From: Candidatus Omnitrophota bacterium
Lineage (GTDB): Bacteria; Omnitrophota; Gorgyraeia; JAFGHF01
NCBI GenBank assembly: GCA_020341815.1
Contig: CP070837.1
Coordinates: 8,034-72,033, forward strand
Length of the DNA stretch: 64,000 bases
Reading direction: 5' to 3'
Shown here: positions 2,054-26,304 of the stretch, one piece after another
How positions within the stretch are numbered: the stretch's first letter is position 1
Layout of the letters: every line of letters starts with the position of its first letter
Translations under genes and position numbers: made by a program
The notes under the pieces: model-generated
Databases searched by the model: none
What the model saw: the letters and a program-made list of their open reading frames with translations, nothing else
What the model was told of the DNA's origin: nothing

Positions 2054-2081
2054 CGTAAAAAATTAGCTGAATAATCCTAGC

Positions 2082-2600: not shown

Positions 2601-2602
2601 GG

Positions 2603-2968: not shown

Positions 2969-2998
2969 AATCGCCTCCTTTTAGTCAATTATAACCTA

Positions 2999-3520: not shown

Positions 3521-3528
3521 TGTCTTTT

Positions 3529-4144: not shown

Positions 4145-4164
4145 AGTTTCTCCGACTATTTTAA

Positions 4165-5835: not shown

Positions 5836-5836
5836 T

Positions 5837-6421: not shown

Positions 6422-6435
6422 GCCTCAAGCTCCCA

Positions 6436-6924: not shown

Positions 6925-6959
6925 TCGCTTTAAATAAGCTCGCTCCGCCTGCCAAAATC

Positions 6960-7379
6960 TTACTTTTCGAAGTCTTCATCGACCATTTTACGCATTCTTT
7001 TTTTCTCGGATCTTTTTCTTTTGTCCTGGAGCATCTTTTCTTTTGCTCTTTTTGAGCGTTTGCGCTTCTGGCGTCTTATTTTCTCTATTCTCTTTCTTTC
7101 CTCGGATAATCTCCCCAACAGACGCGCTTCAATCTTATTGGCGAGAATCCTTCTGGCTAAGAATCTGTTTAAGGCCTGGGAACGCTCACGACTGCATTTC
7201 ACCTCAATTCCGCTGGGGGTGTGTCTAAGATAGACGCAGCTTGCGGTCTTATTTACCTTCTGCCCGCCCCTTCCGCTTGAACGAATAAACTTCTCCTGAA
7301 GGTCCTGCTCGCGGATTTTCAGGGCTTCCATTTTTGCCCTTAAGGCCTCTTTTTTGGCCTTGGTTATGCCAAATTGCAT
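6960..7379 (-). CDS. arfB: alternative ribosome-rescue factor ArfB (GGQ peptidyl-tRNA hydrolase)
   Basis: SGRGGQKVNKT GGQ motif plus a very basic C-terminal tail; 139 aa. Confidence 0.8.
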   Translation of the reverse strand: MQFGITKAKKEALRAKMEALKIREQDLQEKFIRSSGRGGQKVNKTASCVYLRHTPSGIEVKCSRERSQALNRFLARRILANKIEARLLGRLSEERKRIEKIRRQKRKRSKRAKEKMLQDKRKRSEKKRMRKMVDEDFEK

Positions 7380-7406
7380 ATCTCAATTATACTCCCAAAA
7401 ACAAAC

Positions 7407-7430
7407 AGCCTCAAGATAAATCTTGAGGCT
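7407..7430 (-). terminator. palindromic terminator AGCCTCAAGATAAATCTTGAGGCT
   Basis: Perfect 10-bp stem, U-run on the minus strand; identical copy at 8170-8193. Confidence 0.6.
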
Positions 7431-7470
7431 GAAAGATATAATCAAACTCTCTATTTCCATATCTATCTAC

Positions 7471-8124
7471 TCAGTTAATTTCCAATTCCAGTTTGGATAT
7501 TAACTTATCCACTTCTTTTACAACGCGCGCAGGAAATACCTTGCTAATCTTAATCTCTTCTCTTATAGACTTAAGCAGAGACAAAAAGCGCCTGATTAAG
7601 CTCAGCTTTTTCTTCTGCCAGGCCTCCTGCGGCAGGAGCTCTTCCCGCTGCTTCATTAGTGCCGTAAGGTCCTTTTTCACCGAACGCTCATCTTTTCCGT
7701 TCTCAAAGACATTGGCTCTTAAGCGCTCGTAATCGCTTCTGTCCAGCTCCTTTTTGCTTTTGGCAAGGCGAAGGGCATTTATAGAATCGAGCGTAGGCAC
7801 CGAAGAGGCCTCCTCTCCATAATCATTCTTAAGATATGCCGACTCTTCCTGCTCAAGAAAATAATAAGACTTCAAGAGCTTAAGCGCTGTCTGCTTGCGT
7901 ATGCCGATCTCTTTTGCGGTATACTTATCAAAATTACTGTATCCCCAGTCCTTATATAGCTTATCCTTCCAGACCGAATAAAGAGTCTGGCCCAATTCTA
8001 TCCACGATGTCTTAAAATGCTTGGCATTTTTCAGAACCTGATGCCTCAATGAAGAATCATCCATATTTTCCATCAACTCTTCGATATTTCTTATCGATTT
8101 TGTCTTTACAGCACTCGTAGTCAT
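7471..8124 (-). CDS. hypothetical protein
   Basis: 217-aa ORF with no confident family assignment. Confidence 0.4.
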   Translation of the reverse strand: MTTSAVKTKSIRNIEELMENMDDSSLRHQVLKNAKHFKTSWIELGQTLYSVWKDKLYKDWGYSNFDKYTAKEIGIRKQTALKLLKSYYFLEQEESAYLKNDYGEEASSVPTLDSINALRLAKSKKELDRSDYERLRANVFENGKDERSVKKDLTALMKQREELLPQEAWQKKKLSLIRRFLSLLKSIREEIKISKVFPARVVKEVDKLISKLELEIN

Positions 8125-8169
8125 AAGTTCTCCTCCCTTTGGCTTCTAATTATACCCCACTAACAAAAA

Positions 8170-8193
8170 AGCCTCAAGATAAATCTTGAGGCT
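8170..8193 (-). terminator. palindromic terminator, identical copy
   Basis: Same 24-nt palindrome as 7407-7430, flanked by A6 and T-rich sequence. Confidence 0.6.
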
Positions 8194-8212
8194 TTATATG
8201 CCATTCTATTGC

Positions 8213-8440
8213 TTACAGCTCAAACTTCCCGGACTCTTCTTTCTTCTCTTTAGAGAATCTGCCTTTGGTGTTATCAAGAGTCCGCTGAAGGGCCGTAAAT
8301 ATCTTATCTACCTCTTCGGCAGTATATTCATAACCGGGAGAGGATAGATTGCCTATCAGCTCTATCTTCTTTATTGCGTTCGTCACCCTTTGCGAGGCCA
8401 GGCGTTTAAACTTATCGTGCTTGCTTTCAGCTTCTGCCAT
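8213..8440 (-). CDS. small hypothetical protein
   Basis: 75-aa charged ORF followed by a terminator. Confidence 0.35.
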   Translation of the reverse strand: MAEAESKHDKFKRLASQRVTNAIKKIELIGNLSSPGYEYTAEEVDKIFTALQRTLDNTKGRFSKEKKEESGKFEL

Positions 8441-8481
8441 AACTTAAACCTCCTTTTTAAAGAAACATCCTAACAAAAATT

Positions 8482-9024
8482 TTATAACCGGGGACCGCCG
8501 GAAAAACGGAAAAATAGGGAAAATATAAGCATAAGGGCTGCTACTTGAATAAGCCAGCCGATTACGCAAACCCCCACAGCTCTTCCCATGCTTTTATAAT
8601 CAAGGGCTTGCCTGACAGCAATCGCCATAGCTATAAGCATCCAGATCGAAGAGGCGAAAAATACCAGAGGCCCTATTACAGGAAGGAAGCCAAAGATACG
8701 AATTAAGCCGGCTGAACTGGAGAAGCCGATGGTGCGCAGCATTTCCCCTATATCTGCCTTGGTCTGCGGCTCAGGAAGCAGCTTGGTTCCCACTAAATAA
8801 GTCAAGAATGCCCAGATATACCAGGCCATAAGCGCAGCCATTGTGCCCATAAAAATTCCACCCAGGCCAATCCTGCCGGTGTTTCCTATGCCGGCTGCGA
8901 TACTGGAAAGCACAACAACCCCCATCGCTTGAGACATTGCTGTCTTATCCGCTTCCACCTCTTCATATAATTGAGGTTCCAGGCGGGCAGCGCGAATAAT
9001 ACGGTTTACGAAATTATTCATCAT
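8482..9024 (-). CDS. Yip1-family membrane protein
   Basis: 5-TM pattern with the conserved GG/IG-rich loops typical of Yip1 domain proteins. Confidence 0.6.
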   Translation of the reverse strand: MMNNFVNRIIRAARLEPQLYEEVEADKTAMSQAMGVVVLSSIAAGIGNTGRIGLGGIFMGTMAALMAWYIWAFLTYLVGTKLLPEPQTKADIGEMLRTIGFSSSAGLIRIFGFLPVIGPLVFFASSIWMLIAMAIAVRQALDYKSMGRAVGVCVIGWLIQVAALMLIFSLFFRFSGGPRL

Positions 9025-10117
9025 ATCCTCCTTCGTCTTGCGGAGTGAGAGCGAGCTTATGCTGCGTCTTCAACTCCTCAATCTTGTTTAAGGGCTTCTC
9101 AAGCTGCCTCTTGCGGGTTGTGGTCAGGGCCTCATATTCCTTCTGGGTATCCTCGATGCGCTTACCCAAAACCTGAAGTTTATCTGAAAACTGCTTCCAT
9201 TGCTTCTTGAAAACAGCTAATAAGGAAAGTACCTCATTGGAAGTCTTCTCCAAGGCAAAATTATCCACCGCCTGGCGGATAATAGCTAAAACCGCAAATA
9301 AAGTTATCGGCGAACAAAAGACAACCTTATTTTTTATTCCCTCATCTAAAATCGAGCTGTCCTGCTCATGTATAAAAGCATAAATCTGTTCATTGGGAAT
9401 AAATAAGAGCACATAATCCACGGTGTTCTGCTCCGGATTGATATATTCGCGCGTGGTTACCTCTTTAATCCTGGAGCGCACATCCCTTAAGAAGTCATTA
9501 CGCAATTTTGTCTTTTCCTGAGCTGAATCAACTTCAAGGAATTTCACATAGTTATCCAGGGGAAACTTGACATCCATATTCATCTTCAGTTTGCGCGGCA
9601 GAAGAAAGGTAAAGTCAGGGCGGCTGCCCGGACCCTCAATGGCCTTTTGCTTTTGATAATTGATATTCTCCACAAAGCCTGCCAGGCGCAGGACATCCTC
9701 AGCCATACGCTCACCCCACTGACCTCTTGCCTTTGTACTGGCTAAGGCCTGGCGCAAGCTATCTGTGGTCTGGGCAAGCGCCTGTGTCTGCTCACCTGCC
9801 GTTTTTAACTGGCTGGTGAGTTCCCCGAATTTCTGCTCCCTGTCCTTTTCCAGCTTCTTGATCAGCTCAGAGACGCCCTCTAATTCCGAGCCCATCCTCT
9901 CTAATTGCTGATCAATCAGGCCCTTCTTATTGTCTAATTCCTTAATAGATAATTCTCTTTCCGAACTCAGTTTCTCTTTGGCCAATCCGATAATCGTCTC
10001 GATATTTTCCCTGCGCAGGGCATCATTTTCCCGGCGCATCCACTTCAAGGCCAAAGTAGCCCCCATGCCCAGAATAAAACCAAGCAAAACTATTCCCACA
10101 ACCGCCAGCCAGCTCAT
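9014..10117 (-). CDS. rmuC: DNA recombination protein RmuC
   Basis: N-terminal TM, long coiled coil, C-terminal QWGERMAEDVLRLAGF...MDVKFPL signature. Confidence 0.85.
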   Translation of the reverse strand: MSWLAVVGIVLLGFILGMGATLALKWMRRENDALRRENIETIIGLAKEKLSSERELSIKELDNKKGLIDQQLERMGSELEGVSELIKKLEKDREQKFGELTSQLKTAGEQTQALAQTTDSLRQALASTKARGQWGERMAEDVLRLAGFVENINYQKQKAIEGPGSRPDFTFLLPRKLKMNMDVKFPLDNYVKFLEVDSAQEKTKLRNDFLRDVRSRIKEVTTREYINPEQNTVDYVLLFIPNEQIYAFIHEQDSSILDEGIKNKVVFCSPITLFAVLAIIRQAVDNFALEKTSNEVLSLLAVFKKQWKQFSDKLQVLGKRIEDTQKEYEALTTTRKRQLEKPLNKIEELKTQHKLALTPQDEGGYDE

Positions 10118-10138
10118 AACTGCTCCTACTTTTGATAT

Positions 10139-10282
10139 TTATTGAACCGAAACTCTTTTAACTTTACCCTTTTCCCAGACAACAAGAGGCCGTCCAGATT
10201 TCTTATGGCGCTCTACTACTTCTTTCACAGCTTCTCTCAAAGCAAGCATTGCTTTATCTTGTAATGATTTTCGTGTTTTCAT
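10139..10282 (-). CDS. 47-aa ORF translationally coupled downstream of the zeta-like kinase (MKTRKSLQDKAMLALREAVKEVVERHKKSGRPLVVWEKGKVKRVSVQ)
   Basis: ATG 3 nt after the stop of the upstream gene; below the ORF-track length cutoff. Confidence 0.35.
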   Translation of the reverse strand: MKTRKSLQDKAMLALREAVKEVVERHKKSGRPLVVWEKGKVKRVSVQ

Positions 10283-10285
10283 ATT

Positions 10286-10861
10286 CTACCTCATCAATGC
10301 TTCTATCTGTTCAAACAATTGCTGATCGGTAATAATAATTTGACCATTTTTCGTTTTTGCTATCAATGCAGGAATAGACCCTGCATTATTGAATAACATC
10401 CAAGAATTCAACAAAGGCTGATATAGTTTGAAAAAATTACATATTGATCTTTTAAAGCGTCTGCGCACATCTTGAACAGGAACGTTATGGCCGCCTTCTG
10501 CAACTCTATCTTTAATGCGAAATATAGCAAGCTCTGCATTTGGAATCCATAAAAAGAAAAGATGCAGTTTATATCCTTTTCTCTTTAGTTCTTTAAACAG
10601 ATTAACATAAGATTTGCCTGCGAGCGTTGATTCAAAGGCAAAATTAACTCTGGAATTGGCAAATTCATGAATCTGTTGCAAAACAAGTTTTCCTGCTTTT
10701 ATAGCTACAGCTTGCGGAGAAAATGGCGAAAGTCCTTGTGCGATTAAATCTGCATTCACAAAATTTGGGCATTTGACATAATCGGGTAGGAATTTTTTTG
10801 CAAAAGTCGTTTTTCCTGATCCATTAGGCCCTGCTATTATATAAGCATTTCTATTTTCCAT
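10286..10861 (-). CDS. zeta-toxin-like / AAA_33 P-loop kinase
   Basis: Walker A GPNGSGKTT within 15 aa of the N-terminus, about 190 aa; locally AT-rich. Confidence 0.6.
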   Translation of the reverse strand: MENRNAYIIAGPNGSGKTTFAKKFLPDYVKCPNFVNADLIAQGLSPFSPQAVAIKAGKLVLQQIHEFANSRVNFAFESTLAGKSYVNLFKELKRKGYKLHLFFLWIPNAELAIFRIKDRVAEGGHNVPVQDVRRRFKRSICNFFKLYQPLLNSWMLFNNAGSIPALIAKTKNGQIIITDQQLFEQIEALMR

Positions 10862-10893
10862 AGGTTATATTATTCTATTTTTCCAAAGTTTCG

Positions 10894-11292
10894 CTAAACT
10901 ATGCTTTGATTCTTATCAATACAAACACGCACTTTCTCAGGAATAGCCACAGGCGCAAATGAAGTATTAATACAAACAAGTATGACTTTTGCACTAACAA
11001 GAAGCTTATCCGCCCTGCGCACTTCCTGCAGAAACACTAAAGAGGCGTTTTTTATCTTCTCTATTTCGGTGACAATTTCAAGAACATCTCCATAATGGGC
11101 AGGTGCTTTATAGCTTATGGATACATCTCGCACTACAAAGCTAATTCCTTCCTCATCCAGCTTCTTTAAATCCAGGCCCTTTTCCCGCAAATATTCTGTG
11201 CGCCCTTCTTCCAGGTAATTAAGATAATTGGCGTAATAAACCACCCCTCCGGAATCAGTATCGTGATAATAAATCCTCTTATTAATCTTCAC
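10894..11292 (-). CDS. acyl-CoA thioesterase, YbgC/4HBT family
   Basis: YYHDTD...GVVYYANYLNYLEEGR hot-dog fold motif. Confidence 0.8.
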   Translation of the reverse strand: MKINKRIYYHDTDSGGVVYYANYLNYLEEGRTEYLREKGLDLKKLDEEGISFVVRDVSISYKAPAHYGDVLEIVTEIEKIKNASLVFLQEVRRADKLLVSAKVILVCINTSFAPVAIPEKVRVCIDKNQSIV

Positions 11293-11318
11293 GCCTTAGG
11301 CCTCTGCTTTGAAAACTG

Positions 11319-11495
11319 CTACCGCATCAAATCGGCAAGCTTTTCTTCAATCAATTTTTTATGTTTTTGCTCTTCCGTAAGCAAATCCGAGAGAAGATCT
11401 TTTAATTCCGGGTGATTAGCCGATAATCTCTGATATAATTCTATCGACTGCTCTTCTTTGGACAAAGCCAATTTCAAAGCCTCTGTTGGGACCAT
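11319..11495 (-). CDS. 58-aa ORF, possibly ferritin/rubrerythrin-like helix pair (MVPTEALKLALSKEEQSIELYQRLS...)
   Basis: Manual translation; short; located between the thioesterase and tRNA-His. Confidence 0.25.
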   Translation of the reverse strand: MVPTEALKLALSKEEQSIELYQRLSANHPELKDLLSDLLTEEQKHKKLIEEKLADLMR

Positions 11496-11516
11496 TTTGC
11501 CCCCTTCTTTTTAATC

Positions 11517-11590
11517 TGGGGTGGCTAACGGGATTTGAACCCGCTCTAAGAGAACCACAATCTCTCGTGCTGCCAATACACCATAGCCAC
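11517..11590 (-). tRNA. tRNA-His(GUG) with encoded G-1 and CCA
   Basis: Cloverleaf read by eye: 8-bp acceptor with extra 5' G, anticodon loop TTGTGGT, T-loop GGTTCAAATCC, 3' CCA. Confidence 0.8.
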
Positions 11591-11605
11591 CATATTTTTG
11601 ACTAT

Positions 11606-12310
11606 TTATTGTCCTATATTTGCTGCTTCCTCATATGTATCTACTTTTAATAAAGAATGTAAATTCAAAGCAGCCCAAACGGGGATATCCATCTTGATTT
11701 CTGATATCTCACCCTTTTCTCTTCTTCTGACCAGCTCTTCATAGTGTTTAATGCTTCTTCCAAAGAGCTTGTCTAAATATTTTATCAGGCTCCGGCGCTC
11801 TTGATCGGAAATAATAAACGGCAACTCTCCTTGAGGATTGTCCGACTCTGCCGGTTCAATAATCACCCAAACAGCCAGACTGCTGGTCTTTAGCGTATTA
11901 TTCCAGGCCTCACCCTGCTCCCGGGCATATTTGGAAAAAAGAGAAAGATACGCCTCTCTCGGCGGCCTATTTAAAGTCTTTATTAATTTTCCGGCAGCAG
12001 TTTCTATATTGGAAATATCCGCATATATCCCCCTTGCGGTTGCCCTGATTGCCTTATCTCTGCTCTCCAGCCAATCTTTCATAAACTCCTTCGCCTTTTG
12101 CAAACGGGGGACTTGATTGTTTAGATTGCCTAGAAGCTTTTCATATTCTACACCCTCAATACTGTAACGGGCAGCCAATTCCAGTCTATAGAGACAATTA
12201 ATCAAATCGTGCATAAACCGGTAATTCTCTGAATTTCTGGCTGCAAAGGCATTACTGGCAGACAATAAACTAAAAGCGAGGAATAATGAAATTAGCTTAT
12301 TTTTCATCAC
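11606..12310 (-). CDS. secreted hypothetical protein
   Basis: Signal peptide MMKNKLISLFLAFSLLSASNAFA; no recognisable domain. Confidence 0.45.
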   Translation of the reverse strand: MMKNKLISLFLAFSLLSASNAFAARNSENYRFMHDLINCLYRLELAARYSIEGVEYEKLLGNLNNQVPRLQKAKEFMKDWLESRDKAIRATARGIYADISNIETAAGKLIKTLNRPPREAYLSLFSKYAREQGEAWNNTLKTSSLAVWVIIEPAESDNPQGELPFIISDQERRSLIKYLDKLFGRSIKHYEELVRRREKGEISEIKMDIPVWAALNLHSLLKVDTYEEAANIGQ

Positions 12311-12334
12311 TTCACCCCCTTTTTTTCTTAAAAA

Positions 12335-12571
12335 GATGGCGTCCCCGGCACGATGCCTTCAATTCTGATAGATTATATCTTCCGTGGATACGCATTGTTT
12401 GCTCCCCGTTATTATACCAGAAAACGGCTGTCTGTAAAGGGCTATTTTGGCCTGCTTCTTTCCCGGATATACGACTATGCCCGCAACAAATGTCCTGATA
12501 AACTCCTTCTTTCTTTCCGGCTCTCCATAGCCTAATATACCCTTGAAATCATCTAAATAAGACAACATCTT
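12335..12571. repeat. 237-bp direct repeat copy 1 (att core gatggcgtccccgg plus recombinase 3' fragment)
   Basis: About 96% identical to 15744-15980. First 14 nt identical to the 3' end of tRNA-Arg at 26032-26045. Confidence 0.9.
12359..12568 (-). pseudogene. C-terminal 69-codon remnant of a large serine recombinase
   Basis: Translation MLSYLDDFKGILGYGEPERKKEFIRTFVAGIVVYPGKKQAKIALYRQPFSG... matches the last 69 aa of the recombinase at 15768-17405 with about 5 substitutions. Confidence 0.85.
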
Positions 12572-12598
12572 ATAAATAAAGAAGTTACAACGGAAAAC

Positions 12599-15433
12599 CT
12601 ATTCCTCGTAAAATATAACTTTTAATCGTATTCGATTTAAATCAATACCGCCAACATTTTCAGGCACCTGCCGGGTCATCGGACTACTGGTGTTAGCTTG
12701 CTGTGGGATTATAGGACTGCTGGGAGCTAACCCTTTTTCTTTGTCTCTTCCAGCCAATTCCATAAGCTTAGGTAATAGCTCTTTGGCTTTGAATCGGCCT
12801 AAACTTCCCTTTTTTGCTTCCTTTTCGGTAAAAATAGTGGTTATATCCGGCTCAATATCGTCAATGATTAATACTGGAACCGGATCACCGCTGTGGCTCA
12901 TTGTTGCAGTGGCGGTTGTATGATCAGCAGTAATCACAACTACTACATCATCTAATGCTTTGCTCTTTAACAAAGGACCAAAAAAGTGTTCATCAATAAG
13001 CTGAGTCACATTTACTTTTCCCTGAGCATCTCCTTTATGTCCAAATGGATCGGGACCTTTCAAATGAACGTAGAGACCGTCACTTTTTTTCAGTTGATCT
13101 TCCACTATTTGTGCAGTTTCTTTATATTCCCGAGGCAAGTCAGCTACATATCTAGGCATTTGAACTAAATTCATTCCGGCAAGTAAACCTATACCTCTTT
13201 CAACCGGCATTTGCTGTACCATTGTCCAGTTCATTCCTCCGGTTTTCTCAGAAAGCGATTTAAGAAACACATCTTTTACGCTGGGGCCGCGAAGAAGGAT
13301 TAAATTTACTGGTACACGGCCTGTTGCTCTGCGTTTTTTATTTATTTCAGAATTATCCATAATTGTGAAGATCTTTTCTACGGCCTCATTTACCAATTTA
13401 CTCAATAGCTGTGTCTTCTCTGTAGGATCTAATCTTGGTTTTACTTTTTGCACTTCATACTTGAAGCTTCCTTCAGGCAAAGATTCAGATGCGTTCTTGC
13501 TGATTTTTTTATACCGGGGGCTTGCATTGGTAACGTCAACGTCCTCAAGAGTATTAAATTTAACTGTAGGAATCCTTATGATTATTACTCCTCGATATTC
13601 TTTAGTAGCGTAAACATAAGCTTTTGCGTTGGAATAAGAAGTTAATTCAAGATTATTATTGATTTCAGCAGCGATTTCTTCAGCCTCTTCTTGAGTTAAA
13701 TCTTTTTGTGCCCGAGGATCTTCGATTTTCAGTAATTCACCTTCCTTATGTCCTGTTCCAAAGTTTAGGCGAAATACAGCATCACCCTCTTGAACATCAG
13801 CGTCAATACCTAAAGCTTCAATTATTCCTCTTCCTGGATAGTCTATATCAGGATCGTAATTCAACATAGCCATCACTGAAGGGTCTGATTCTGGAGCAAA
13901 TCCAGGTTTGATTGGGTCCATCTGCCCCATAGCTCCCTGTTGCACTAACCGAGTTAGATTAGGTAAATTTGCATATTCCAAAGGAGTTTTGCCTCCGAAT
14001 TCTTTAATTCCATATTCTCCGTCACTTACCCCGTCTAAAACAAAATAAACAATCTTTTTCTTTTGGACAAAGCTTTGGTCTTTCACGGGTGAACTCAAAT
14101 TTTCTAATTCTTCTACGCTGTCATAATTAAACCTCTCCGGATTCACGGCGAAACGACTATACGCAAGTGTAATTTCCTCATGTGAAGCCAGACTGGAAAC
14201 TGGGCTCAGTTGCATACCTTCTAGTCCAATGCCTGTTTCATCTGTGATTATCTTCGCATACCATTGTTTACCAAAGGGATCGGCTGCTGTATTAGCAGGG
14301 CTTGATATTGTCTCTACCTTTTTGAATTTAGTACCAGCGAGTATCCCCCCTGAAAAATAATGCTTCTTGGCCATATCAAATTGATAGGGGTCGTATTCCT
14401 GCTGGTAAAAGGAATATTCGCCTTCCTTGTAGGATTTGACATAGGAATCGAAGAAGTCTCTTTTGTTCCAGGGGGTTCTGGAATGAAGCCCGCTGAGGCG
14501 GCCTTGATTGATGTGGTAGTCATACATGGTGCCCTTGCCCCAGTATTTCTGCTTGAAATATTCGGCTAAGATAAGAGAGTAGTATACCTCTCTGATGGGG
14601 GCATAACGCTTTGAATAGTTGACATCGTGCTCTATGACAGGGACGATTACTTCCTTCATTGCAGAGATGGCACAATTTTGAAGGAGCTTCTCCTGTGGGC
14701 TTTGAGTTGAGGTAAGCAGAAGGCCTGCATTGTGTTGTTCTAGGTATTCTGCCTCCAGGCAGACCTTAAGGCTGGCGCTGATAATGTTGACTCTGTCGGT
14801 TCCTCTTTCCTGTAAGATGGCCTCATTAGGCACAATCCAGAGACGGGATAAAGGAAGCGTCTTGAGGTTACTTATGCCGTTTTCTGTAAGGTTTTGCCTT
14901 AATTTGGCCCAGTATCTCTGGCCTATGGGGGTACGGGGATCGGTAAAGCGGGCAGCGTCTTTTTTAAGTTTGAGGTCGGTCTCCAGAAGGACCTTCCCCA
15001 TATCGGTAGCGGTAAGCCGGGGGCTGGCAATCTTATCCGGCTGGACAGGGTTAAGGTTGACCCAGAAGTCTTCCGAAGGTAAGACAAGGCCTAAGAAGAA
15101 GTAGTTGATTAAATCTCTGGCCTTTTGTCGTAATTGTAGGGACAGGGCTGGGCCCTGTCCATTATTGCCCTCATCCAGAACAAAGTCAAAGTAGTTTGAC
15201 TTAGACTGAGGGTTGATGATAAGGCTCCTTAGGACAGGTGGATAGTATTTATCGGTTCTTGCTTCTGAATTGGCAAGAGAGACGGATTTATCCGCAGAAT
15301 AGCTTGATGAGTCCTTGTTCCTTAGGCTGGCACAGAGTAATAAGACGCTAAAGGCTATAAAGAGTACTCCGATTATGCTACAGAGCCATATCCAGAATCT
15401 GTTTTCTTTTACGTTATGTCTTTTCTTTTTCAT
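12599..15433 (-). CDS. membrane-anchored fusion protein: novel roughly 460-aa N-terminal extracytoplasmic domain plus C-terminal ApgM-like cofactor-independent phosphoglycerate mutase / metalloenzyme (alkaline phosphatase superfamily) domain
   Basis: One TM (FWIWLCSIIGVLFIAFSVLLL). C-terminal half has IVYFVLDGVSDG...GGKTPLEYANLPNLTRL...DPSVMAMLNYDP...RLNFGTGHKEG...ITADHTTATATMSHSGDPVP, the ApgM/PF01676 pattern. Start set at M24 (ATG 15433) behind an AGGAG RBS. Confidence 0.65.
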   Translation of the reverse strand: MKKKRHNVKENRFWIWLCSIIGVLFIAFSVLLLCASLRNKDSSSYSADKSVSLANSEARTDKYYPPVLRSLIINPQSKSNYFDFVLDEGNNGQGPALSLQLRQKARDLINYFFLGLVLPSEDFWVNLNPVQPDKIASPRLTATDMGKVLLETDLKLKKDAARFTDPRTPIGQRYWAKLRQNLTENGISNLKTLPLSRLWIVPNEAILQERGTDRVNIISASLKVCLEAEYLEQHNAGLLLTSTQSPQEKLLQNCAISAMKEVIVPVIEHDVNYSKRYAPIREVYYSLILAEYFKQKYWGKGTMYDYHINQGRLSGLHSRTPWNKRDFFDSYVKSYKEGEYSFYQQEYDPYQFDMAKKHYFSGGILAGTKFKKVETISSPANTAADPFGKQWYAKIITDETGIGLEGMQLSPVSSLASHEEITLAYSRFAVNPERFNYDSVEELENLSSPVKDQSFVQKKKIVYFVLDGVSDGEYGIKEFGGKTPLEYANLPNLTRLVQQGAMGQMDPIKPGFAPESDPSVMAMLNYDPDIDYPGRGIIEALGIDADVQEGDAVFRLNFGTGHKEGELLKIEDPRAQKDLTQEEAEEIAAEINNNLELTSYSNAKAYVYATKEYRGVIIIRIPTVKFNTLEDVDVTNASPRYKKISKNASESLPEGSFKYEVQKVKPRLDPTEKTQLLSKLVNEAVEKIFTIMDNSEINKKRRATGRVPVNLILLRGPSVKDVFLKSLSEKTGGMNWTMVQQMPVERGIGLLAGMNLVQMPRYVADLPREYKETAQIVEDQLKKSDGLYVHLKGPDPFGHKGDAQGKVNVTQLIDEHFFGPLLKSKALDDVVVVITADHTTATATMSHSGDPVPVLIIDDIEPDITTIFTEKEAKKGSLGRFKAKELLPKLMELAGRDKEKGLAPSSPIIPQQANTSSPMTRQVPENVGGIDLNRIRLKVIFYEE

Positions 15434-15695: not shown

Positions 15696-15743
15696 GAATC
15701 CGTAACCTCTTATAAATATTTATGTTACAAGAGTATGCGAATT

Positions 15744-15980
15744 GATGGCGTCCCCGGCACGATGCCTTCAATTCTGATAGATTATATCTTCCGTGGATAC
15801 GCATTGTTTACTCCCCGCTATTATACCAGAAAACGGCTGTCTGTAAAGGGCTATTTTGGCCTGCCTCTTCTCTGGATATACGACTATGCCCGCAACAAAT
15901 GTCCTGACAAACTCCTTCTTCCTCTCCGGCTCTCCATAGCCTAATATACCCTTGAAATCATCTAAATAAGACAACATCTT
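15744..15980. repeat. 237-bp direct repeat copy 2 (att core plus intact recombinase 3' end)
   Basis: See copy 1. Preceded by cgaatt, matching the cgaatc flank of the tRNA-Arg 3' end. Confidence 0.9.
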
Positions 15981-17405
15981 CCCTACCGCCTTATCTGCAT
16001 GGCCGTTATGGACCTTTGTTGTAAGACGGCCTTTCTCCTGATATAACTGCTGCCTTTGAAACACATATTTATTGATGATATTTACAGCGCTATCAAGCTC
16101 TATGCCCTTCTCAATGGCCTTTTTCCAGTTTTCTATCTTTAAGGATACCTCTTTTATCTCCTGATCTAACTCGCAGAGCCTCGTATCTGACCTATTTTCC
16201 GCAATTTTGACTATTTTAAGCAGTTCTTCTTTTAATTCCTTCCGCCAGGCAGAATTGTCTATCTTATTCTGTATGTAGCTTATAACAAACTCCTCAAGCT
16301 TATCTGCATCTATATCCCATCTAATACAGGCATTATTGCCATACATATTATAGCCGCCGCATCGATACCTTCTGGCTACTCTGTCTTTTCTTTTATAGCG
16401 GCTGCCCTGGAAATTAGAGCCGCACTTGCCGCATTTCATTATTCCGGTCAAAAGATAATTACTTCCCGGCCTTGTCCCGCAAGACAAGAACCTTCCGCCT
16501 ACAAAGGCCTGTCTTGTCCTGGCCTGAATCAATTCCCAAAGTTCCATGGAAATTATCGGCTGATGAGAGTTTTCTACGACAACCCACTTATCTTTAGGGT
16601 TATATTTGTGCTTGCCGTTTCGTTTATGTATATTTTCCCGGTTATACACTAAGGTTCCAATATAAACATCATTATGCAATATCCGCCAAAGGGATGATTT
16701 TGTCCACTTTTTGCCTCTTGGAGGCGCATAAGGACTTTGGTTAAGATATTCTACAATAGAGCGCACGGATAACCCCTGCTTGGCGAACATTACAAATATA
16801 GTCTTAATAACTTTAGCCTGCTGTTTATTTACGACAAGCTTTATTTTCTGGCCCTTTATGCCCTTTTCTTTGCCTTCCGGCAGAACCTCGCCTATTTTTC
16901 CGCCTTCAACAAGAGCTCTATTATAGCCGTAAGGGGGCCTCCCGCCCATCCAAAAGCCCTGTTTCGCATTATATATCTTACCTCTTAGCGTCTGCCGCCT
17001 GATATTCTTTAGATATTCTGAGGCCTCTGCGCTTTTCACAAAGTTGGTTATTGAAGTTCCTATACTGTCTTCTTTAAAACCTTCCGAGACAAAAACGACT
17101 TTCTTATCTGCTCTTTCAACTTCTACTTCCCAATAGACAGCTTCTTTGGGATTAGTGAACCTGCCCCATCTGGAGATATCATATACAAGTACATATTGAA
17201 AATCATCCTTTAATTTACAGCATTCTATCATTTTGCGAAACTGCGGGCGGCCTTCCACATTTTCGCCGCAGGCCTCTTCCGCAAAAAACTCTATCACTTT
17301 AATAGAATGCTGCTTTGCAAACAGCAATATCTTCTCTTTCTGCTGTTCTAAAGATGTCTCCTGTAAGTCAGTCGATTTTCTCAAGTAGGCAATGGCTTGC
17401 TTCAT
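15768..17405 (-). CDS. large serine recombinase (resolvase N-domain, recombinase domain, zinc ribbon, coiled coil)
   Basis: YLRKSTDLQ catalytic Ser motif, DISRWGR, GGRPPYGY, CGKCGSNF...RYRCGG zinc ribbon; 545 aa. Confidence 0.85.
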   Translation of the reverse strand: MKQAIAYLRKSTDLQETSLEQQKEKILLFAKQHSIKVIEFFAEEACGENVEGRPQFRKMIECCKLKDDFQYVLVYDISRWGRFTNPKEAVYWEVEVERADKKVVFVSEGFKEDSIGTSITNFVKSAEASEYLKNIRRQTLRGKIYNAKQGFWMGGRPPYGYNRALVEGGKIGEVLPEGKEKGIKGQKIKLVVNKQQAKVIKTIFVMFAKQGLSVRSIVEYLNQSPYAPPRGKKWTKSSLWRILHNDVYIGTLVYNRENIHKRNGKHKYNPKDKWVVVENSHQPIISMELWELIQARTRQAFVGGRFLSCGTRPGSNYLLTGIMKCGKCGSNFQGSRYKRKDRVARRYRCGGYNMYGNNACIRWDIDADKLEEFVISYIQNKIDNSAWRKELKEELLKIVKIAENRSDTRLCELDQEIKEVSLKIENWKKAIEKGIELDSAVNIINKYVFQRQQLYQEKGRLTTKVHNGHADKAVGKMLSYLDDFKGILGYGEPERKKEFVRTFVAGIVVYPEKRQAKIALYRQPFSGIIAGSKQCVSTEDIIYQN

Positions 17406-19701: not shown

Positions 19702-19846
19702 AGTTTGTGATATCTAATTGTAATATTTATTAACAAAAGTTATTTTAGCACAAATTTCGATAAAAGTCAATTATATTTATAATTGCCCAAATTGTCCAGA
19801 AACATAACTTATTTCCTCTTAAGCAGTTGCAACAATTCACCAATTC

Positions 19847-20638
19847 TCAAAAACCAACTTTGTATTTTTTCAGAAATAAATCTAATTCTTGTTTCTTTCC
19901 TAGTTCAAATAAATCATTATATACAGATAGGAATGTATGCATGTATTCAATTGTTAAAATCATATTTGTTATTATATTGCAATATGATGGGTCAGAAGAA
20001 AAATATGTATATTCTTCAGTACGCTTCACTTCTTGGATGATTCCAAGCATTGAGGGGTGTGAAATTAAGCAGCACATACGATATACAAGATTATATTCAT
20101 TTGACATACCAACTACTTCGGCCATTCTTTCAACGGATTTCCCCGACCAAGTAGAAAGACCATTTTTAACTTTAAAATTTACTTTATATTCTTTAACTTT
20201 AGCCAAAATTTCGGGTTCTTTTGATAGAATTGATTTCTGTAACTTTTTGCTCTCAACTTGTTTATTTGTTTTCCAATATTTCAATTGCTTTCTCATCAGT
20301 AGCCATTTGTATTCTTCAAATCTTTGAGCAAGCTCATTAGGATTTTTATTCAAAATTATATATTTTGTAGTAATCAAATTTTCTAATAGTGATCTCATAA
20401 GTATTAGGGCGCTCATACCATGACCTTCTTGGCAGAGCAAATCAATAGATTTATAATGTCTAATTGATGTATTAAATAGATATAGAAAGGTGTTCTTATA
20501 TTTTGGTATTCTGCTTGGTCGAAAGTTATTTGATGATTGATTAAAGACGATAAGTAATGTGTCTATTAAATGATATAAATTATCGGCGCATTCAAATAGT
20601 TCTTTATTTTTTTTAAGATTTTCATGTTTAAAAGCCAT
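19847..20638 (-). CDS. hypothetical protein with HEPN-like Rx6H motif (RMCCLISHPS), candidate abortive-infection-type RNase
   Basis: 263 aa; the R-x6-H-x-S motif lies in a predicted helical C-terminal region. Confidence 0.35.
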   Translation of the reverse strand: MAFKHENLKKNKELFECADNLYHLIDTLLIVFNQSSNNFRPSRIPKYKNTFLYLFNTSIRHYKSIDLLCQEGHGMSALILMRSLLENLITTKYIILNKNPNELAQRFEEYKWLLMRKQLKYWKTNKQVESKKLQKSILSKEPEILAKVKEYKVNFKVKNGLSTWSGKSVERMAEVVGMSNEYNLVYRMCCLISHPSMLGIIQEVKRTEEYTYFSSDPSYCNIITNMILTIEYMHTFLSVYNDLFELGKKQELDLFLKKYKVGF

Positions 20639-20818
20639 ATTTTTATATTCACTTCATATAATGCTTGAGATAATCTGTCTTTTTCGCATAGCTAAAAAAG
20701 TTAGATTGAGCGATTTGATAAAGGTTTAATTTATAAATATTTCACATAAAATCAGGTGACAATACCTATTTAGTAATTAAGTATTGTCCCTCGATTTGTG
20801 TCATTTTCGCTCTCTTGT

Positions 20819-21157
20819 TTAAGGTAAAGCTACTGGTACGCTAAACTTAATTCGGCTTACTGAGGAATTCTCTTTGCGGGATTCACCTTGACTGCCAAGT
20901 CCGACTGATCCAACAAAAACACCAATGCCACCTTTTGTGCCCTGTCGTTCCACTGCAGTTATTGCTACATCAAATTCAACTATAGTTACAGTTTTATGGC
21001 CGCTCATTTTCATCAGGCCTTGTTTCACAATATCTTTTGTATCCCCCCAAACACCTGGATTAATGTCGGCACCGGATGTGGATTCAGATTCCTTAGCATT
21101 TTTAATGCCTGTAATTAACTCTTCTAAGGTTTTTGACACAAAGTCACTTAAATTCAT
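20819..21157 (-). CDS. small protein resembling the Trypco2 (trypsin-co-occurring domain 2) fold
   Basis: N-terminal amphipathic helix (LEELITGIKNA) followed by Gly-rich beta hairpins VEFDVAITAVERQGTKGGIGVFVGSVGLGSQGES...IKFSVPV. Only gene in the window with a perfect AGGAGG SD at -7. Confidence 0.35.
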   Translation of the reverse strand: MNLSDFVSKTLEELITGIKNAKESESTSGADINPGVWGDTKDIVKQGLMKMSGHKTVTIVEFDVAITAVERQGTKGGIGVFVGSVGLGSQGESRKENSSVSRIKFSVPVALP

Positions 21158-21289: not shown

Positions 21290-22381
21290 TTATTTTCCAG
21301 ATTTTGTTCGGTTATCTTGTTTGCACAACATTTGACAATTTTCTGCAACAGTCTTTCCACCTTCATGCCATGGCTTTATATGATCAGCTTCCATTCCTTC
21401 TATCTCAAAGCGTTTCTTGCATTTTACGCATTTACCTTTTTGCCTTTCATATGCTTCTCTCTTTTGTTTATCTGTGAATGCTCTAATATTCAAAAATTTC
21501 TCATTTCGGGTTAAAATATATGGATAAATTCCGGATTTCTTCGTTACTTCGTCATCTAGCATTAATTCTTTGATTTCAGTTTCCAATTTATTAGAGTTCA
21601 GTCTCTTCTTTTTGAACTCGTTATGCAGCCCGCCCCATTGCACACCACTCATTTCTCGGCGATAATTTATAAAAGTCTTTCGCACCCACTCAATCACATC
21701 TTGAAAGTATTGCCATAATTCTTCAGCATTCTGACTATGCTGATGTTTGGCCATATAATCTTCTATCTTGCCATTGTTAATCCACGAAAGTGCAGTTTCT
21801 AAATACTCTTGTCGTATTGGCGATCCACTTACTAATTGTCCCCCATCATTTGCTAGAAGGTATGCTGCACAATTTGATTTGCTAAATTTCAATTTAGCGT
21901 CGCTCAACCATGGCCCAGTATAAACTGCATTGCGTATTTCTTGATCAGTCAATTTTACACCGGCAATGTTGATAATCCTAAACCAGTCTAACCGCTCTTT
22001 GTCTGTGCCTTCGCAGAAGTAAATCATTAGTTCATAATCCAAAATTTTATCCTGCTCCTCTTTGGTTAGATTATGAAAAAAGCAGTTATTCAGTGAAAAA
22101 TCGTTATAAACATATTGTCCTATACTAATAGTGCGCTGTTGGCCGTCCAGCATTTCGTAGCCGCCATCTTCTCTGATCATCCAATACATCACATTCAGCG
22201 GAAAGCTGTTTTTGATAGTTTCTATCACGGCATTACGTTGCTTTTCCTTGTATACAAACTCACGCTGATATTTTGGACGAATATTCAATTTGCCGTCATA
22301 AGCCGTCACGCCTTCTTCAGCACTATCTTTATAATCGGCTATTACCTTACGAATTGGAATTTTATGTAGATCGATTTTCAT
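21290..22381 (-). CDS. DUF262 (ParB/Srx-like, DGQQR) domain protein with C-terminal HNH endonuclease, GmrSD/SspE-like
   Basis: MLDGQQRTISI motif; C-terminal CVKCKK...EADHIKPWHEGGKTVAENCQMLCKQDN HNH motif. Confidence 0.75.
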   Translation of the reverse strand: MKIDLHKIPIRKVIADYKDSAEEGVTAYDGKLNIRPKYQREFVYKEKQRNAVIETIKNSFPLNVMYWMIREDGGYEMLDGQQRTISIGQYVYNDFSLNNCFFHNLTKEEQDKILDYELMIYFCEGTDKERLDWFRIINIAGVKLTDQEIRNAVYTGPWLSDAKLKFSKSNCAAYLLANDGGQLVSGSPIRQEYLETALSWINNGKIEDYMAKHQHSQNAEELWQYFQDVIEWVRKTFINYRREMSGVQWGGLHNEFKKKRLNSNKLETEIKELMLDDEVTKKSGIYPYILTRNEKFLNIRAFTDKQKREAYERQKGKCVKCKKRFEIEGMEADHIKPWHEGGKTVAENCQMLCKQDNRTKSGK

Positions 22382-22382
22382 A

Positions 22383-23435
22383 TTATTTTTTCACTTTCTT
22401 GTTTTTAATTAAAATACGAGCATATATTTCTTGACCATTTATCGTAAATCTCTTTCCATAATTCGGATTATCTTTGACATACCTATCAATACCAATAATT
22501 TCAAACTGCTCGGGGTTATATTTATCAACAAATGTAATTGGAACACCCATTACACCTTTATAATCCATTGGGATATCAATGTATCTATTTATATTAATAG
22601 CATTGTAGCTATCATATTTAGGATAATCCTCTGGGCTATATTTTTTATATAAAGTTAATTCTTCATGACGTTTTGCAGTATCCAAATTTGTAAACCACAG
22701 AATACGACCCATACTTAAATATTTCACACCGTTTTCAATCTTCTTCCTTGATTCTGTTGGTATGTCATAATCCATGGGTACCTGGAACCACTTCGTGCCA
22801 CCGTTATCATAACCAAGCCACAATTTATTTTCTTTGATATAGCCGAAAATTTCTTTATAAGAAATAGCGTTCTGATCACCAAGAATCAAAAACTTCTTGT
22901 TATATTCCATTAGCTGTGCAACATATTCCCGAAACAGAGAAAAAGGCGGATTGGTTACAACTATGTCGGCTTGCTTGAGTAATTCTATACACTCATCGCT
23001 GCGGAAATCGCCATCACCTTCAAGGGGAGATGAAGTATTAACATCATGTCTTAGCAACCACTCTACATCTGTAATATCAACAGCGCCGTCGGCATTAACA
23101 TCTGAAATCTCCCTTATTTCAATTTTAAATGGCTCTTTGCCTTTCGGCTTTAACCCTTCCATTTCAAACAACAACAGCTGACCGCCCACAATTGGCGACT
23201 TAATATAGCTTGTGGTAATAAGCTTCTTTAGTTTTAGTGGTTTAAAATTAGCAGCGAAATATTTAAAAAAATTACTCTCAAAGGGATCATCGCAATTACA
23301 GTAAACAACCTTGCCACGAAATTGTTCTTTGTAGTGTCTTAGCTCTTTTTCAATATCAACGAGCTGGGTATAAAACTCATCTTTTTTTGCTTTGCTTGCC
23401 TTATGTAAGTTTTTATTTAAAGATTTAGTTCCCAT
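22383..23435 (-). CDS. N6-adenine DNA methyltransferase (FYT motif X-like ... NPPF motif IV) with embedded EF-hand/dockerin-like Ca-binding loop
   Basis: DEFYTQLV near the N-terminus, IVVTNPPFSLF catalytic motif, DVNADGAVDITD 12-residue DxNxDGxxDxxD loop; stop overlaps the start of the DUF262-HNH gene. Confidence 0.6.
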   Translation of the reverse strand: MGTKSLNKNLHKASKAKKDEFYTQLVDIEKELRHYKEQFRGKVVYCNCDDPFESNFFKYFAANFKPLKLKKLITTSYIKSPIVGGQLLLFEMEGLKPKGKEPFKIEIREISDVNADGAVDITDVEWLLRHDVNTSSPLEGDGDFRSDECIELLKQADIVVTNPPFSLFREYVAQLMEYNKKFLILGDQNAISYKEIFGYIKENKLWLGYDNGGTKWFQVPMDYDIPTESRKKIENGVKYLSMGRILWFTNLDTAKRHEELTLYKKYSPEDYPKYDSYNAININRYIDIPMDYKGVMGVPITFVDKYNPEQFEIIGIDRYVKDNPNYGKRFTINGQEIYARILIKNKKVKK

Positions 23436-23659: not shown

Positions 23660-24973
23660 TTATTGCTCAATCTTACAACCCTCCTTTGACACTCTTAACC
23701 ATCCATATTTCTTTGTAAAGATATCGAGTACATCATTATTTGTAATTTCTCCCTGTTCTTTCAGATAGAGCAGATTTAATAGATCAATTGTCCTCATAAT
23801 TAACACCTTCTTTTCAACTGCTAACTTTACTTGCTCTGAATTTACTTCGCGCAATTTGTCTGCAATACTATTTGCTGATTTTATAAATGAATTCACAATT
23901 AATATAGTTGGAAATTTAGACGATTTCCCTCTGCGACCTCTATGTGAGTCTGCTTGATAAACATTAGGACTTTTAATATTTTCGTTTACTCCCTTTATTT
24001 CCAAAAGAGCTATCTCTTTATTATCTTTGTCAAGTATTGCTCTGTCTTCTATGTATTCGTCTTTTTTAGTATCTATGTTAAAGCTAAACCCTTCTTTCAA
24101 TACATCTACCACACTATCAACTAATGGATTATCACTATAACAAAGGCATCTTTTATATTTTTTATACACCTCTTTTCCTGCAAGTAGTGCCTCTATCTTA
24201 TTCTGTAATGCTACTTCTTTTTTCAAGATAGCTTCTTCTTCTTGAAACTTATAGTCGTCTACCCAAGATGGTATTTCTTGAACTAATTTCTTTGAAGTAG
24301 CCACTAAAGATGAAACGAGTTCCTTAAAAAAATGATCTATTTCGTCTATTGATGGTATCCGACACGGGATAATATAATGGCTGTCAAACAAAATGAAGCC
24401 CGCTAGAGTACGATAGCCTGCATCACAAATCTTTTTTACATACGGTTCAAAGAATGAATTATAGGAAAATTTTACCTTTGCTATGCCATAGTCTTTCAAG
24501 AATTGCAGAAATTCCCCTTTATAAGTCTTTGTAATTCCACAATCCCCACCTAAAGGATACCTATAGAAACCATCATAATTTAGAAGCAGTTTGCATAAGC
24601 CAGTCTGTTTCAGATTTAAGTCATCCTGACCTCTTATATAATCAACAAATTCTGAATGGATGAGGAAGCAAATAAATCCTCCTCTCTCGCGTAATTGTAA
24701 AGTTTGATTTCTTCTTTTTACTAATTCATCTCTCCGATATCGCAAATATTTTTGTGCATAGAGGCCATCTGTTGATTCAACACTTTCAAATGTAGACTGG
24801 AATAAAACTACGCCATTATAATCTTGAAACCTTTTAGCTGTTTCGAAAGGTTCAAAATCTATTTCAAAGTTTTTGGTTTTGATGGTTGACTGCGGAATAC
24901 TTAAGTCGAAACGCTCAATACCATATACAAGAATACGTGGTAAGGTAGAACCTTGAATTTGTTTAGCATCCAT
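23660..24973 (-). CDS. hypothetical protein with C-terminal PD-(D/E)xK nuclease-like core, candidate restriction endonuclease
   Basis: ...EDRAILDKDNKEIALLEIKG (D ... ExK spacing typical of the restriction-endonuclease fold); N-terminal 300 aa unassigned. Confidence 0.4.
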   Translation of the reverse strand: MDAKQIQGSTLPRILVYGIERFDLSIPQSTIKTKNFEIDFEPFETAKRFQDYNGVVLFQSTFESVESTDGLYAQKYLRYRRDELVKRRNQTLQLRERGGFICFLIHSEFVDYIRGQDDLNLKQTGLCKLLLNYDGFYRYPLGGDCGITKTYKGEFLQFLKDYGIAKVKFSYNSFFEPYVKKICDAGYRTLAGFILFDSHYIIPCRIPSIDEIDHFFKELVSSLVATSKKLVQEIPSWVDDYKFQEEEAILKKEVALQNKIEALLAGKEVYKKYKRCLCYSDNPLVDSVVDVLKEGFSFNIDTKKDEYIEDRAILDKDNKEIALLEIKGVNENIKSPNVYQADSHRGRRGKSSKFPTILIVNSFIKSANSIADKLREVNSEQVKLAVEKKVLIMRTIDLLNLLYLKEQGEITNNDVLDIFTKKYGWLRVSKEGCKIEQ

Positions 24974-25915: not shown

Positions 25916-26033
25916 CTTTAAAATAAAAAAAGGGAAGCTACCCTGCACCGTATGGTACAGAACAACTTCCCTTAATTTTGGTAACCTTTTATAACTGTTT
26001 AAGTTATAAAAGTGTCCGAATCGATGGCGTCCC

Positions 26034-26304
26034 CGGTGTGATTCGAACACACGACCCTCTGCTTAGCATCCAGCATCAAGTTTCCCTGACCACTCCGAAT
26101 ACTCGGAGCTTGCTGGCCGGACTTTCTCTTGGGCGTCTCAGCCCCACCGCGTAAAGTCTCTACACTTCCCCAAAACTTTTAGGGTAGCTCGGTATTACCC
26201 AACTTGGGCGTCTACCGAATTAGCGGTGTCCACTTCATAAGTTTATTTCCCTATGAAGGCTCCTTATTGAAGGCAGATGCTCTATCCAGCTGAGCTACGG
26301 GGAC
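26034..26304 (-). tRNA. tRNA-Arg(UCU) interrupted by a 194-nt intron in the anticodon loop (exons 26270-26304 and 26034-26075)
   Basis: 5' half GTCCCCGTAGCTCAGCTGGATAGAGCATCTGCCTT and 3' half CTAAGCAGAGGGTCGTGTGTTCGAATCACACCGGGGACGCCA. They pair perfectly in acceptor (GTCCCCG/CGGGGAC) and anticodon (TCTGC/GCAGA) stems. The D-arm is that of E. coli tRNA-Arg. Confidence 0.75.
26076..26269 (-). ncRNA. group I (IC3-like) self-splicing intron candidate inside tRNA-Arg
   Basis: Contains GAAGUGUAGAGACUUUACGCGGUGGGG, closely resembling the P7/J6-7 core GAAGGUGUAGAGACUAGACGGCACCC of the Azoarcus tRNA-Ile intron as I remember it. 5' exon ends in U, intron ends in G. Possible P1 CUU/GAG. Confidence 0.55.

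Follow-up and report, generated by a model that had tools for sequence, protein, structure and literature searches.

A stand-alone DUF5677 protein carried by a serine-recombinase island of a Candidatus Omnitrophota bacterium

Aditi is a validated anti-phage system whose mechanism has yet to be explained; it reportedly consists of two genes, DitA and DitB (an account attributed to Millman et al., 2022), and DUF5677 is the sole domain that can be recognised in it. Residues 276-427 of DitA match the DUF5677 model PF18928 (HHpred, 99%; DefensePredictor supplement, PMC13092281), and the same work predicts an E. coli 'DUF5677 domain-containing protein' as a novel defence gene and finds a second family, DUF6988, in a newly validated DefensePredictor system (PMC13092281). 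DUF5677 is also statistically enriched beside serine recombinases (10.1101/2025.10.07.681051). Here we use sequence comparison and structure prediction to study a gene from a window of 64,000 nucleotides (the whole stretch of DNA analysed: contig CP070837.1 of assembly GCA_020341815.1, positions 8,034 to 72,033, Candidatus Omnitrophota bacterium). A first-pass annotation had suggested that its product may be a HEPN-like RNase by virtue of an R-x6-H motif, acting either alone or as a fourth component of the neighboring three-gene PIN operon. We find that the gene encodes a stand-alone DUF5677 protein and travels as autonomous cargo of a mobile island; the annotation that fits it is DUF5677 protein, in place of HEPN RNase or PIN-system subunit.

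The gene is placed as follows (coordinates are window positions unless a locus is named):
19847 to 20638, minus strand: gene for a stand-alone DUF5677 (PF18928) protein of 263 amino acids; evidence from the open reading frame, Pfam, a public gene call and an AlphaFold2 (AF2) model.
The open reading frame (ORF) runs from ATG to stop and is real; public gene calls reproduce both the protein and its neighboring genes, and the identical deposited protein is hypothetical protein JSV30_00200 of a Candidatus Omnitrophota metagenome-assembled genome (MAG). The Pfam match (E=1.1e-25, 91.1 bits against a gathering threshold of 27.1 bits) covers residues 51-202, corresponding to positions 4-157 of the 166 in the model, and the residues that are invariant or nearly so in the family (R82, H194, W164, Y182, L68 and G72, each present in 123-136 of 136 members) are all found in the window protein. 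By sequence, then, it is clearly a single-domain, stand-alone member of DUF5677, and what is new here is one more member of a known, uncharacterised family. Its other profile matches are slight: PADLOC gives a single weak match, to the candidate system PDC-S52 (E=0.0046, residues 54-90), Pfam DUF6988, the Pfam family nearest to DUF5677, matches the same hairpin motif (residues 54-90) at E=0.034, PHROGs returns a weak match to an unannotated family, and NCBIfam returns no match. The protein belongs to a divergent sub-clade from Omnitrophota and Planctomycetota, at most 48% identical to anything else found, and carries S76 in place of the family's D, and C190 at a position that is mostly S in other members.

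To collect the family, 1.84 billion cluster representatives were searched exhaustively with phmmer, which gave 461 representative relatives at E<=1e-3. Of these, 13 reach E<=1e-30 and the closest share 46% identity; almost every one is a stand-alone protein 250-300 amino acids long. Exhaustive HMMER searching was required, as a word-indexed homologue search yielded 2 proteins from the window protein and 5 from the alignment described next. Conservation was counted in an alignment of 136 homologues (mean column identity 16%), every one of which matches PF18928. In this alignment R82 is present in 136/136 sequences, H194 in 135, W164 in 134, L68 in 133, Y182 in 131, G72 in 123, Y186 in 115, S165 in 111 and R106 in 91; E86 is found in 108, with N or D in 26 more, and position 190 is S or C in 133. 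Judged from these counts, the conserved set is R82, E86, R106, W164, Y182 and H194, and not R-x6-H; R82, W164, Y182 and H194 are kept in each of 16 proteins from related loci, and motif 1, described below, is kept in all related loci. The conserved stretches are located as follows:
20381 to 20425, minus strand: motif 1, G72 to E86, consensus GxGxDAxxLxRSLxE, comprising the hairpin turn between H3 and H4 plus the start of helix 74-96, with R82 and E86; from alignment counts.
20141 to 20149, minus strand: W164-S165-G166 loop motif; from alignment counts.
20057 to 20095, minus strand: motif 2, Y182 to H194, YxxxYxxx[SC]xxxH, helix 179-193 with H194 at its C-terminal end; from the alignment, DSSP and direct coupling analysis.
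In some family members the first two helices are replaced by a short N-terminal module, HTH_17 in four cases and the zinc module SEC-C in two, or by a weak HicB-like match.

We turn next to structure prediction. The alignment-based AF2 model of the full protein is all-alpha, with 13 helices and one small hairpin (predicted local distance difference test, pLDDT, 95.9; predicted template modelling score, pTM, 0.92), and a model of the core alone (residues 44-248) has a pLDDT of 96.1. Foldseek searches with the full and core models against PDB and BFVD found no significant neighbor (best E 0.6-1.0, TM-score below 0.4), and sequence searches of PDB with the window protein and the family profile returned nothing meaningful. 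The models show DUF5677 as a confidently predicted, compact all-alpha fold without solved relatives. Mean-field direct coupling analysis (DCA) of the 136-sequence alignment has low power (effective sequence number, Meff, 136) and was read for pairs at least 7 residues apart. Between helices the H3-H4 hairpin gives the strongest signal, accounting for 15 of the top 130 pairs, and the second most coupled helices are H4 and H10, with 9 of the 130, among them E86-S193 (rank 8), E86-Y186, E86-C190 and M75/M81-C190. The pair F107-P195 ranks third and Y151-P195 also appears; R82-H194 itself, a near-invariant and hence uninformative pair, ranks about 50. Two stripes of residues are spaced i, i+4, namely R82-E86-x90-Y93 and Y182-Y186-S190-H194. 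From the couplings taken together with the stripes, the conserved polar residues appear to converge around H194, and R82, E86, R106, W164 and the Y182/Y186/S-C190/H194 stripe probably form one polar site.

How, then, does the R-x6-H motif fare? The first-pass annotation had pointed to the string RMCCLISHPS in a helical C-terminal region, and the string is indeed there, at residues 187-196: AF2 and DSSP place residues 179-193 in a helix with H194 directly after it, and R187-x6-H194 (20057-20080) lies inside motif 2. As a signature, however, the spacing carries no weight, because it occurs at the frequency expected by chance: the 263 residues include 9 Arg and 6 His, and when the protein is shuffled 20,000 times an R-x4-6-H turns up at least once in 47% of the shuffles and an exact R-x6-H in 19%. 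The two motif residues also part ways in the family. The histidine is sound, being the key conserved H194, whereas position 187 is R in 51 of 136 homologues and K in 29, and is W, A or G in homologues that retain R82, E86, R106, W164, Y182 and H194. R-x4-6-H ending at H194 occurs in just 52 of 136 homologues, and we rejected it as a family-wide motif on the counts for its Arg (51/136) against its His (135/136). In HEPN proteins the residue after the motif Arg is typically N, D or H (PMC3710099); here position 188 is L, I, M, Y or F in 110 of 136.

Searches for HEPN relatives beyond the motif gave the same picture. No HEPN-clan Pfam model matches the window protein or any of the 136 homologues, except DUF4145 in 2 members at E=0.012, and the family consensus has no HEPN match in Pfam at E<=10. 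The HEPN entries that surface in the Foldseek noise (Csm6 6tug at E 2.3, 4nqf at E 3.4, AbiV 9bj7 at E 4.1) all have E above 2 and a TM-score of at most 0.39. The annotation had left the HEPN four-helix core to structure prediction, and models at a pLDDT of 96 without a significant HEPN match go against it. The Arg is variable, the residue following it is hydrophobic and no significant profile or fold match to the HEPN clan turned up; apart from the placement of the His at a helix end, each test applied here went against HEPN membership. Of the suggested stand-alone, abortive-infection (Abi-type) RNase, the stand-alone state is supported, with the gene sitting among defence genes on a mobile island, and the HEPN identity is not supported.

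Now we consider whether the gene belongs to the PIN operon. The first gene of that three-gene operon starts at 19701 on the same strand, so the DUF5677 gene does lie upstream of it and co-oriented with it, across a spacer of 145 nucleotides. The features that bear on its transcription are:
20819 to 21157, minus strand: ORF of 112 amino acids, upstream; a sub-threshold Trypco2 match alone (E=0.029).
20749 to 20797, minus strand: terminator-like hairpin after the 112-amino-acid gene; 24-nucleotide inverted repeat, RNA fold.
19742 to 19798, minus strand: two sigma-70-like promoter matches in the 145-nucleotide spacer ahead of the PIN operon; consensus matches.
The hairpin has a predicted energy of -21 kcal/mol (z=-5.4, with 0/200 shuffles equally stable) and is followed by UUUUAU; this terminator-like structure separates the 112-amino-acid gene from the DUF5677 transcript. 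The spacer matches are TGGACA-17-TATAAT (11/12) and TTGACT-17-TAAAAT with an extended -10 TG (10/12), and because of these promoter-like sites the PIN operon could be transcribed on its own, although the total of such sites in the region is not above shuffle expectation. No terminator is predicted after the DUF5677 stop codon, which makes read-through possible and not required. We compared 24 related loci, 15 from reference genomes and 9 from metagenomes, mostly of Omnitrophota, Planctomycetota and Actinomycetota. Homologues of the 202-amino-acid, 115-amino-acid or PIN proteins of the operon accompany the family in 0 of the 24; among these loci we found no homologue of any island gene, save a distantly related serine recombinase in L016, and no neighbor gene conserved across clades. 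Because no island gene co-occurs with it, no neighbor is conserved, a hairpin lies upstream and promoter-like sites lie downstream, the DUF5677 gene is autonomous and outside the PIN operon. Neither flank contains tandem repeats or an antitoxin-like repeat RNA. A type II or III toxin-antitoxin module was considered and rejected: the flanks lack repeats, and the 112-amino-acid gene sits behind the terminator-like hairpin and is absent from the related loci.

A 10.3-kb serine-recombinase island, inserted at the 3' end of a tRNA gene, carries the DUF5677 gene as cargo. The G+C content is 28-36% in the cargo (18-25 kb) against 42-48% in the flanks, and the cargo comprises two XRE-type helix-turn-helix ORFs, the PIN operon, the DUF5677 gene, the 112-amino-acid ORF, a restriction-modification (R-M) pair and a 437-amino-acid protein. 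The remaining features of the island are:
15702 to 15757, no strand: left direct repeat, attachment-site-like (att-like), 56 nucleotides; 84% identical to 25981-26036 and ending in GATGGCGTCCCCGG, the 3' acceptor strand of the tRNA.
15768 to 17405, minus strand: large serine recombinase at the left island end, next to the left repeat on its inner side; Pfam Resolvase, Recombinase and Zn_ribbon_recom.
21290 to 22381, minus strand: EcoRI-type adenine methylase; Pfam E=1e-138.
22383 to 23435, minus strand: GmrSD_N(DUF262)+HNH protein; full-length PADLOC match to a type II restriction endonuclease, E=8.5e-130.
23660 to 24973, minus strand: ORF of 437 amino acids; no Pfam, PADLOC or NCBIfam match.
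25981 to 26036, no strand: right att-like direct repeat; overlaps the 3' end of the intron-containing tRNA 26025-26304.
26025 to 26304, minus strand: tRNA gene split by a 203-nucleotide intervening sequence in the anticodon loop; ARAGORN intron mode.
The methylase and GmrSD_N/HNH ORFs abut, and together (21290-23435) they look like a type II R-M system, with a nuclease built in the way usual for modification-dependent enzymes.

Some details of the island ends are recorded here as observations in their own right. Each att-like copy contains the last ~14 nucleotides of the split tRNA and, downstream of them, a hairpin with a stem that survives although both sides have changed, and an att homology as long as 56 nucleotides is unusual for a serine integrase. 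The split tRNA is missed by default ARAGORN and by Rfam. ARAGORN in intron mode calls it Ser(GCT); if the gene follows group-I splicing, in which U precedes the 5' splice site and the intron ends in G, the anticodon would be UCU (Arg), a reading with which both the D-arm and the short variable arm agree. Inspected by eye, the insert is like small IC3 tRNA introns (e.g. GUGUAGAGACU), and Rfam Intron_gpI gives no match to it at E<=1.

The settings of the related genes fall into several kinds. The closest homologue (47% identity; L001/L016, Planctomycetia) is also in a low-GC island, which spans 44-14566 and holds an AlwI restriction endonuclease, a Gabija-like pair of OLD-ATPase and UvrD helicase, followed by five more genes lined up on one strand and encoding a 342-amino-acid unknown protein, a papain-like protease (Peptidase_C1), DUF5677, Lipase_3 and a PLD/DrmC-like protein, with a serine recombinase further downstream (13043-14566). 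For more distant homologues the settings are of a housekeeping kind. In three Actinomycetota MAGs (L013, 6271-10049; L014, 6325-10034; L015, 6258-10013) the homologue lies between larE-larB and larC of the nickel-pincer cofactor pathway; its neighbors are larE-like (PP-loop), larB-like (AIRC) and larC (Ni_insertion), stop and start codons overlap or abut, and the homologue retains all conserved residues. In two metagenome contigs (L022, 5802-12889; L024, 2055-7643) it is flanked by dnaK (Hsp70) on one side and clpB on the other, all in the same orientation, and keeps R82, E86, R106, W164, Y182 and H194, with A or G at position 187. Further homologues adjoin uvrC, a radical-SAM SPL-like gene or a Na+/H+ exchanger. 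In nine Omnitrophota loci the chromosomal position is a common one, with a gene for a secreted low-complexity repeat protein downstream of the DUF5677 gene. That protein (L002, 9312-12479; L008, 9231-11978; equivalents in L004, L006, L007 and L012) is 822-1055 amino acids long, rich in Ser, Ala and Asn, and without a family match, and in several Omnitrophota MAGs it is followed by a second secreted protein, rich in Pro, Thr and Ala. As a functional partner of DUF5677 the Ser/Ala/Asn repeat neighbor was rejected, being a secreted low-complexity protein.

Several observations tie the family to defence. The PADLOC DitA model is matched by 10 of the 136 family members (best E=5.4e-7), PDC-S52 by 13 (best E=5.6e-7) and DUF6988 by 15, and through such matches profile comparison shows the window protein to be homologous, transitively, to the C-terminal domain of DitA. 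Because of the R-M system next door, the defence island of the closest homologue, the DitA and PDC-S52 matches and the enrichment beside recombinases, we regard the window protein as probably defence-related.

The best explanation we can offer, and we offer it tentatively, is that the gene is autonomous DUF5677 island cargo whose protein has one conserved polar site and acts as a latent single-gene effector. On this account the gene would be one of several independent cargo modules (the others being the R-M pair, the PIN operon and two unknown genes), and its conserved site would bind a phosphate-bearing substrate, either RNA or a nucleotide, and cleave or modify it without a metal. H194 would serve as general acid/base, with R82 and R106 stabilising the phosphate, and the protein would be a latent effector of the abortive-infection type. 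The basic isoelectric point (pI) of the window protein, 9.3, was counted in favor of this account. The proposed site has two Arg, one of them invariant, together with a Glu, several Tyr and the His, and it lacks a cluster of metal ligands; because metal-independent phosphoryl-transfer enzymes such as HEPN RNases use sites of this kind, we propose such chemistry as the most likely. Our best guess for the mechanism, a low-confidence one made by analogy, is therefore something HEPN RNase-like in function without demonstrable HEPN identity.

A number of observations weigh against this explanation. No activity has ever been demonstrated for DUF5677, and the one stand-alone DUF5677 ORF tested in E. 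faecalis falls outside the five ORFs, out of nine, that conferred defence (10.1101/2025.10.07.681051). The clustering of R82 with H194 comes from the low-power DCA and not from coordinates. The family's median pI is a neutral 7.3. The housekeeping settings in which all conserved residues are retained (lar, dnaK-clpB, uvrC, Na+/H+ exchanger) fit a toxin poorly, and neither an adjacent antitoxin-like gene nor a repeat RNA was found. Finally, tblastn searches of plasmid and phage collections with the window protein, the consensus and a typical member gave no match, and two scans of viral-contig collections gave no relatives.

A broader reading, conceivable though doubtful in our judgement, takes DUF5677 as a whole to be an unrecognised catalytic domain, in which a composite Arg/Glu/Tyr/His site would lie either in a novel all-alpha fold or in a radically rearranged HEPN whose Arg has moved to another helix. 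Aditi DitA and stand-alone single-gene defence cassettes such as the window gene would have this domain in common as their effector, and the same chemistry would have been recruited into the lar and dnaK-clpB operons.

Alternatively, DUF5677 could be a non-catalytic sensor, adaptor or regulatory module that signals to other factors; a pocket made by the conserved R/E/W/Y/H residues would bind a ligand, nucleic acid or protein, for instance a phage trigger. This would suit Aditi, where the domain is the C-terminal part of DitA and acts with DitB, as well as the presence of the family, conserved residues included, within housekeeping operons and the stand-alone ORF that gave no defence by itself; the fusions, too, are to small DNA- or zinc-binding modules (the four HTH_17 and two SEC-C cases) and not to sensors. 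We nevertheless think it unlikely, since there is no conserved signalling partner in the window or at most loci, and invariance of Arg, His, Glu and Tyr across 136 sequences whose columns average 16% identity is more typical of catalysis.

About as unlikely, to our minds, is a genuine but very divergent HEPN-superfamily RNase whose catalytic Arg has moved to helix 2 as R82. In such a layout helices 46-70 and 74-96 would be the first alpha-hairpin, E86 the acidic residue of helix 2, residues 97-178 an insert between helices 2 and 3, and helix 179-193 the third core helix with the catalytic His at its end. HEPN proteins have a conserved acidic residue in helix 2 and commonly carry inserts between helices 2 and 3, their motif runs from the end of helix 3 into the start of the following loop, and some families retain the H without the R and use basic residues elsewhere (PMC3710099). 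H194 does sit at a helix end running into a loop, as that description places it, and E86, in helix 74-96, couples with 186, 190 and 193 in the low-power DCA, the core-helix assignment itself being putative. An R or K stands 4-6 residues ahead of the His in 60% of members, DUF4145 is matched by the 2 members already mentioned and Csm6 by 1 (E=0.0085), and Csm6 6tug, AbiV 9bj7 and 4nqf are the HEPN structures that surface in the Foldseek noise. AbiV-family relatives likewise lack strict conservation of R or H (AbiV paper), and the zinc-motif fusions of the family parallel RAZR (zinc finger plus DUF4145). Set against this, no sequence profile or structure of any HEPN gives a significant match, R187 is followed by a hydrophobic residue and not by N, D or H, the R-x6-H spacing is at chance level, and the helix-2 pair is R-x3-E where E-x3-[KR] is described for HEPN.

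Less probable still is that the protein is a housekeeping or stress-related one, a mere passenger on the island with no role in defence. The homologues between dnaK and clpB, in the lar operon and beside uvrC and other core genes speak for a passenger, as do the nine Omnitrophota loci at a common chromosomal position beside a surface repeat protein and the lack of plasmid or phage copies in the collections searched. Yet both the window copy and the homologue closest to it are carried by low-GC islands that have a recombinase and are dense with defence genes, the family is tied to DitA and PDC-S52 and enriched beside serine recombinases, and an E. coli member is scored as a defence gene by DefensePredictor. 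The weakest alternative, a fourth component co-transcribed with the PIN genes, would draw on the shared strand, the 145-nucleotide spacer and the lack of a predicted terminator past the DUF5677 stop, and is very improbable, being largely refuted by the absence of PIN-operon homologues from all 24 related loci and opposed by the two strong promoter-like sites inside the spacer.

For the window itself the result is mostly a correction of annotation and of modest interest. Its wider use lies in the domain: the analysis shows a confidently folded (as predicted) DUF5677 domain, without a solved relative, that is able to stand alone on a mobile island, and the list R82, E86, R106, W164, Y182 and H194 offers concrete mutagenesis targets for Aditi-type domains.

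Finally, we set the tentative single-gene effector beside the systems it most resembles. With Aditi it shares PF18928, the C-terminal domain of DitA, and 10 of 136 relatives match the DitA model; it differs in that the window protein itself does not reach that model (no match at E<=1) and lacks the N-terminal region of ~275 amino acids, and none of seven neighboring island proteins matches DitB in PADLOC. PDC-S52 and DUF6988 resemble it weakly over the hairpin motif at residues 54-90, and they are separate families in which the N-terminal hairpin alone aligns, DUF6988 being gene 3 of a three-gene unit. HEPN RNases (AbiV; RAZR/DUF4145; HepT; Csm6) differ in that DUF5677 has no homology to them detectable by profile or Foldseek, a variable motif Arg with a hydrophobic neighbor, and an invariant Arg that lies 112 residues upstream of the His. 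They are alike in being all-alpha and often stand-alone in defence islands and, under the putative core-helix assignment, in having the key His where a core helix ends, a conserved acidic residue on a helix before it and sizeable inserts that separate core helices; loss or relocation of the Arg is tolerated in some HEPN families. By analogy, then, HEPN RNases may be the best functional guide to how the window protein acts.
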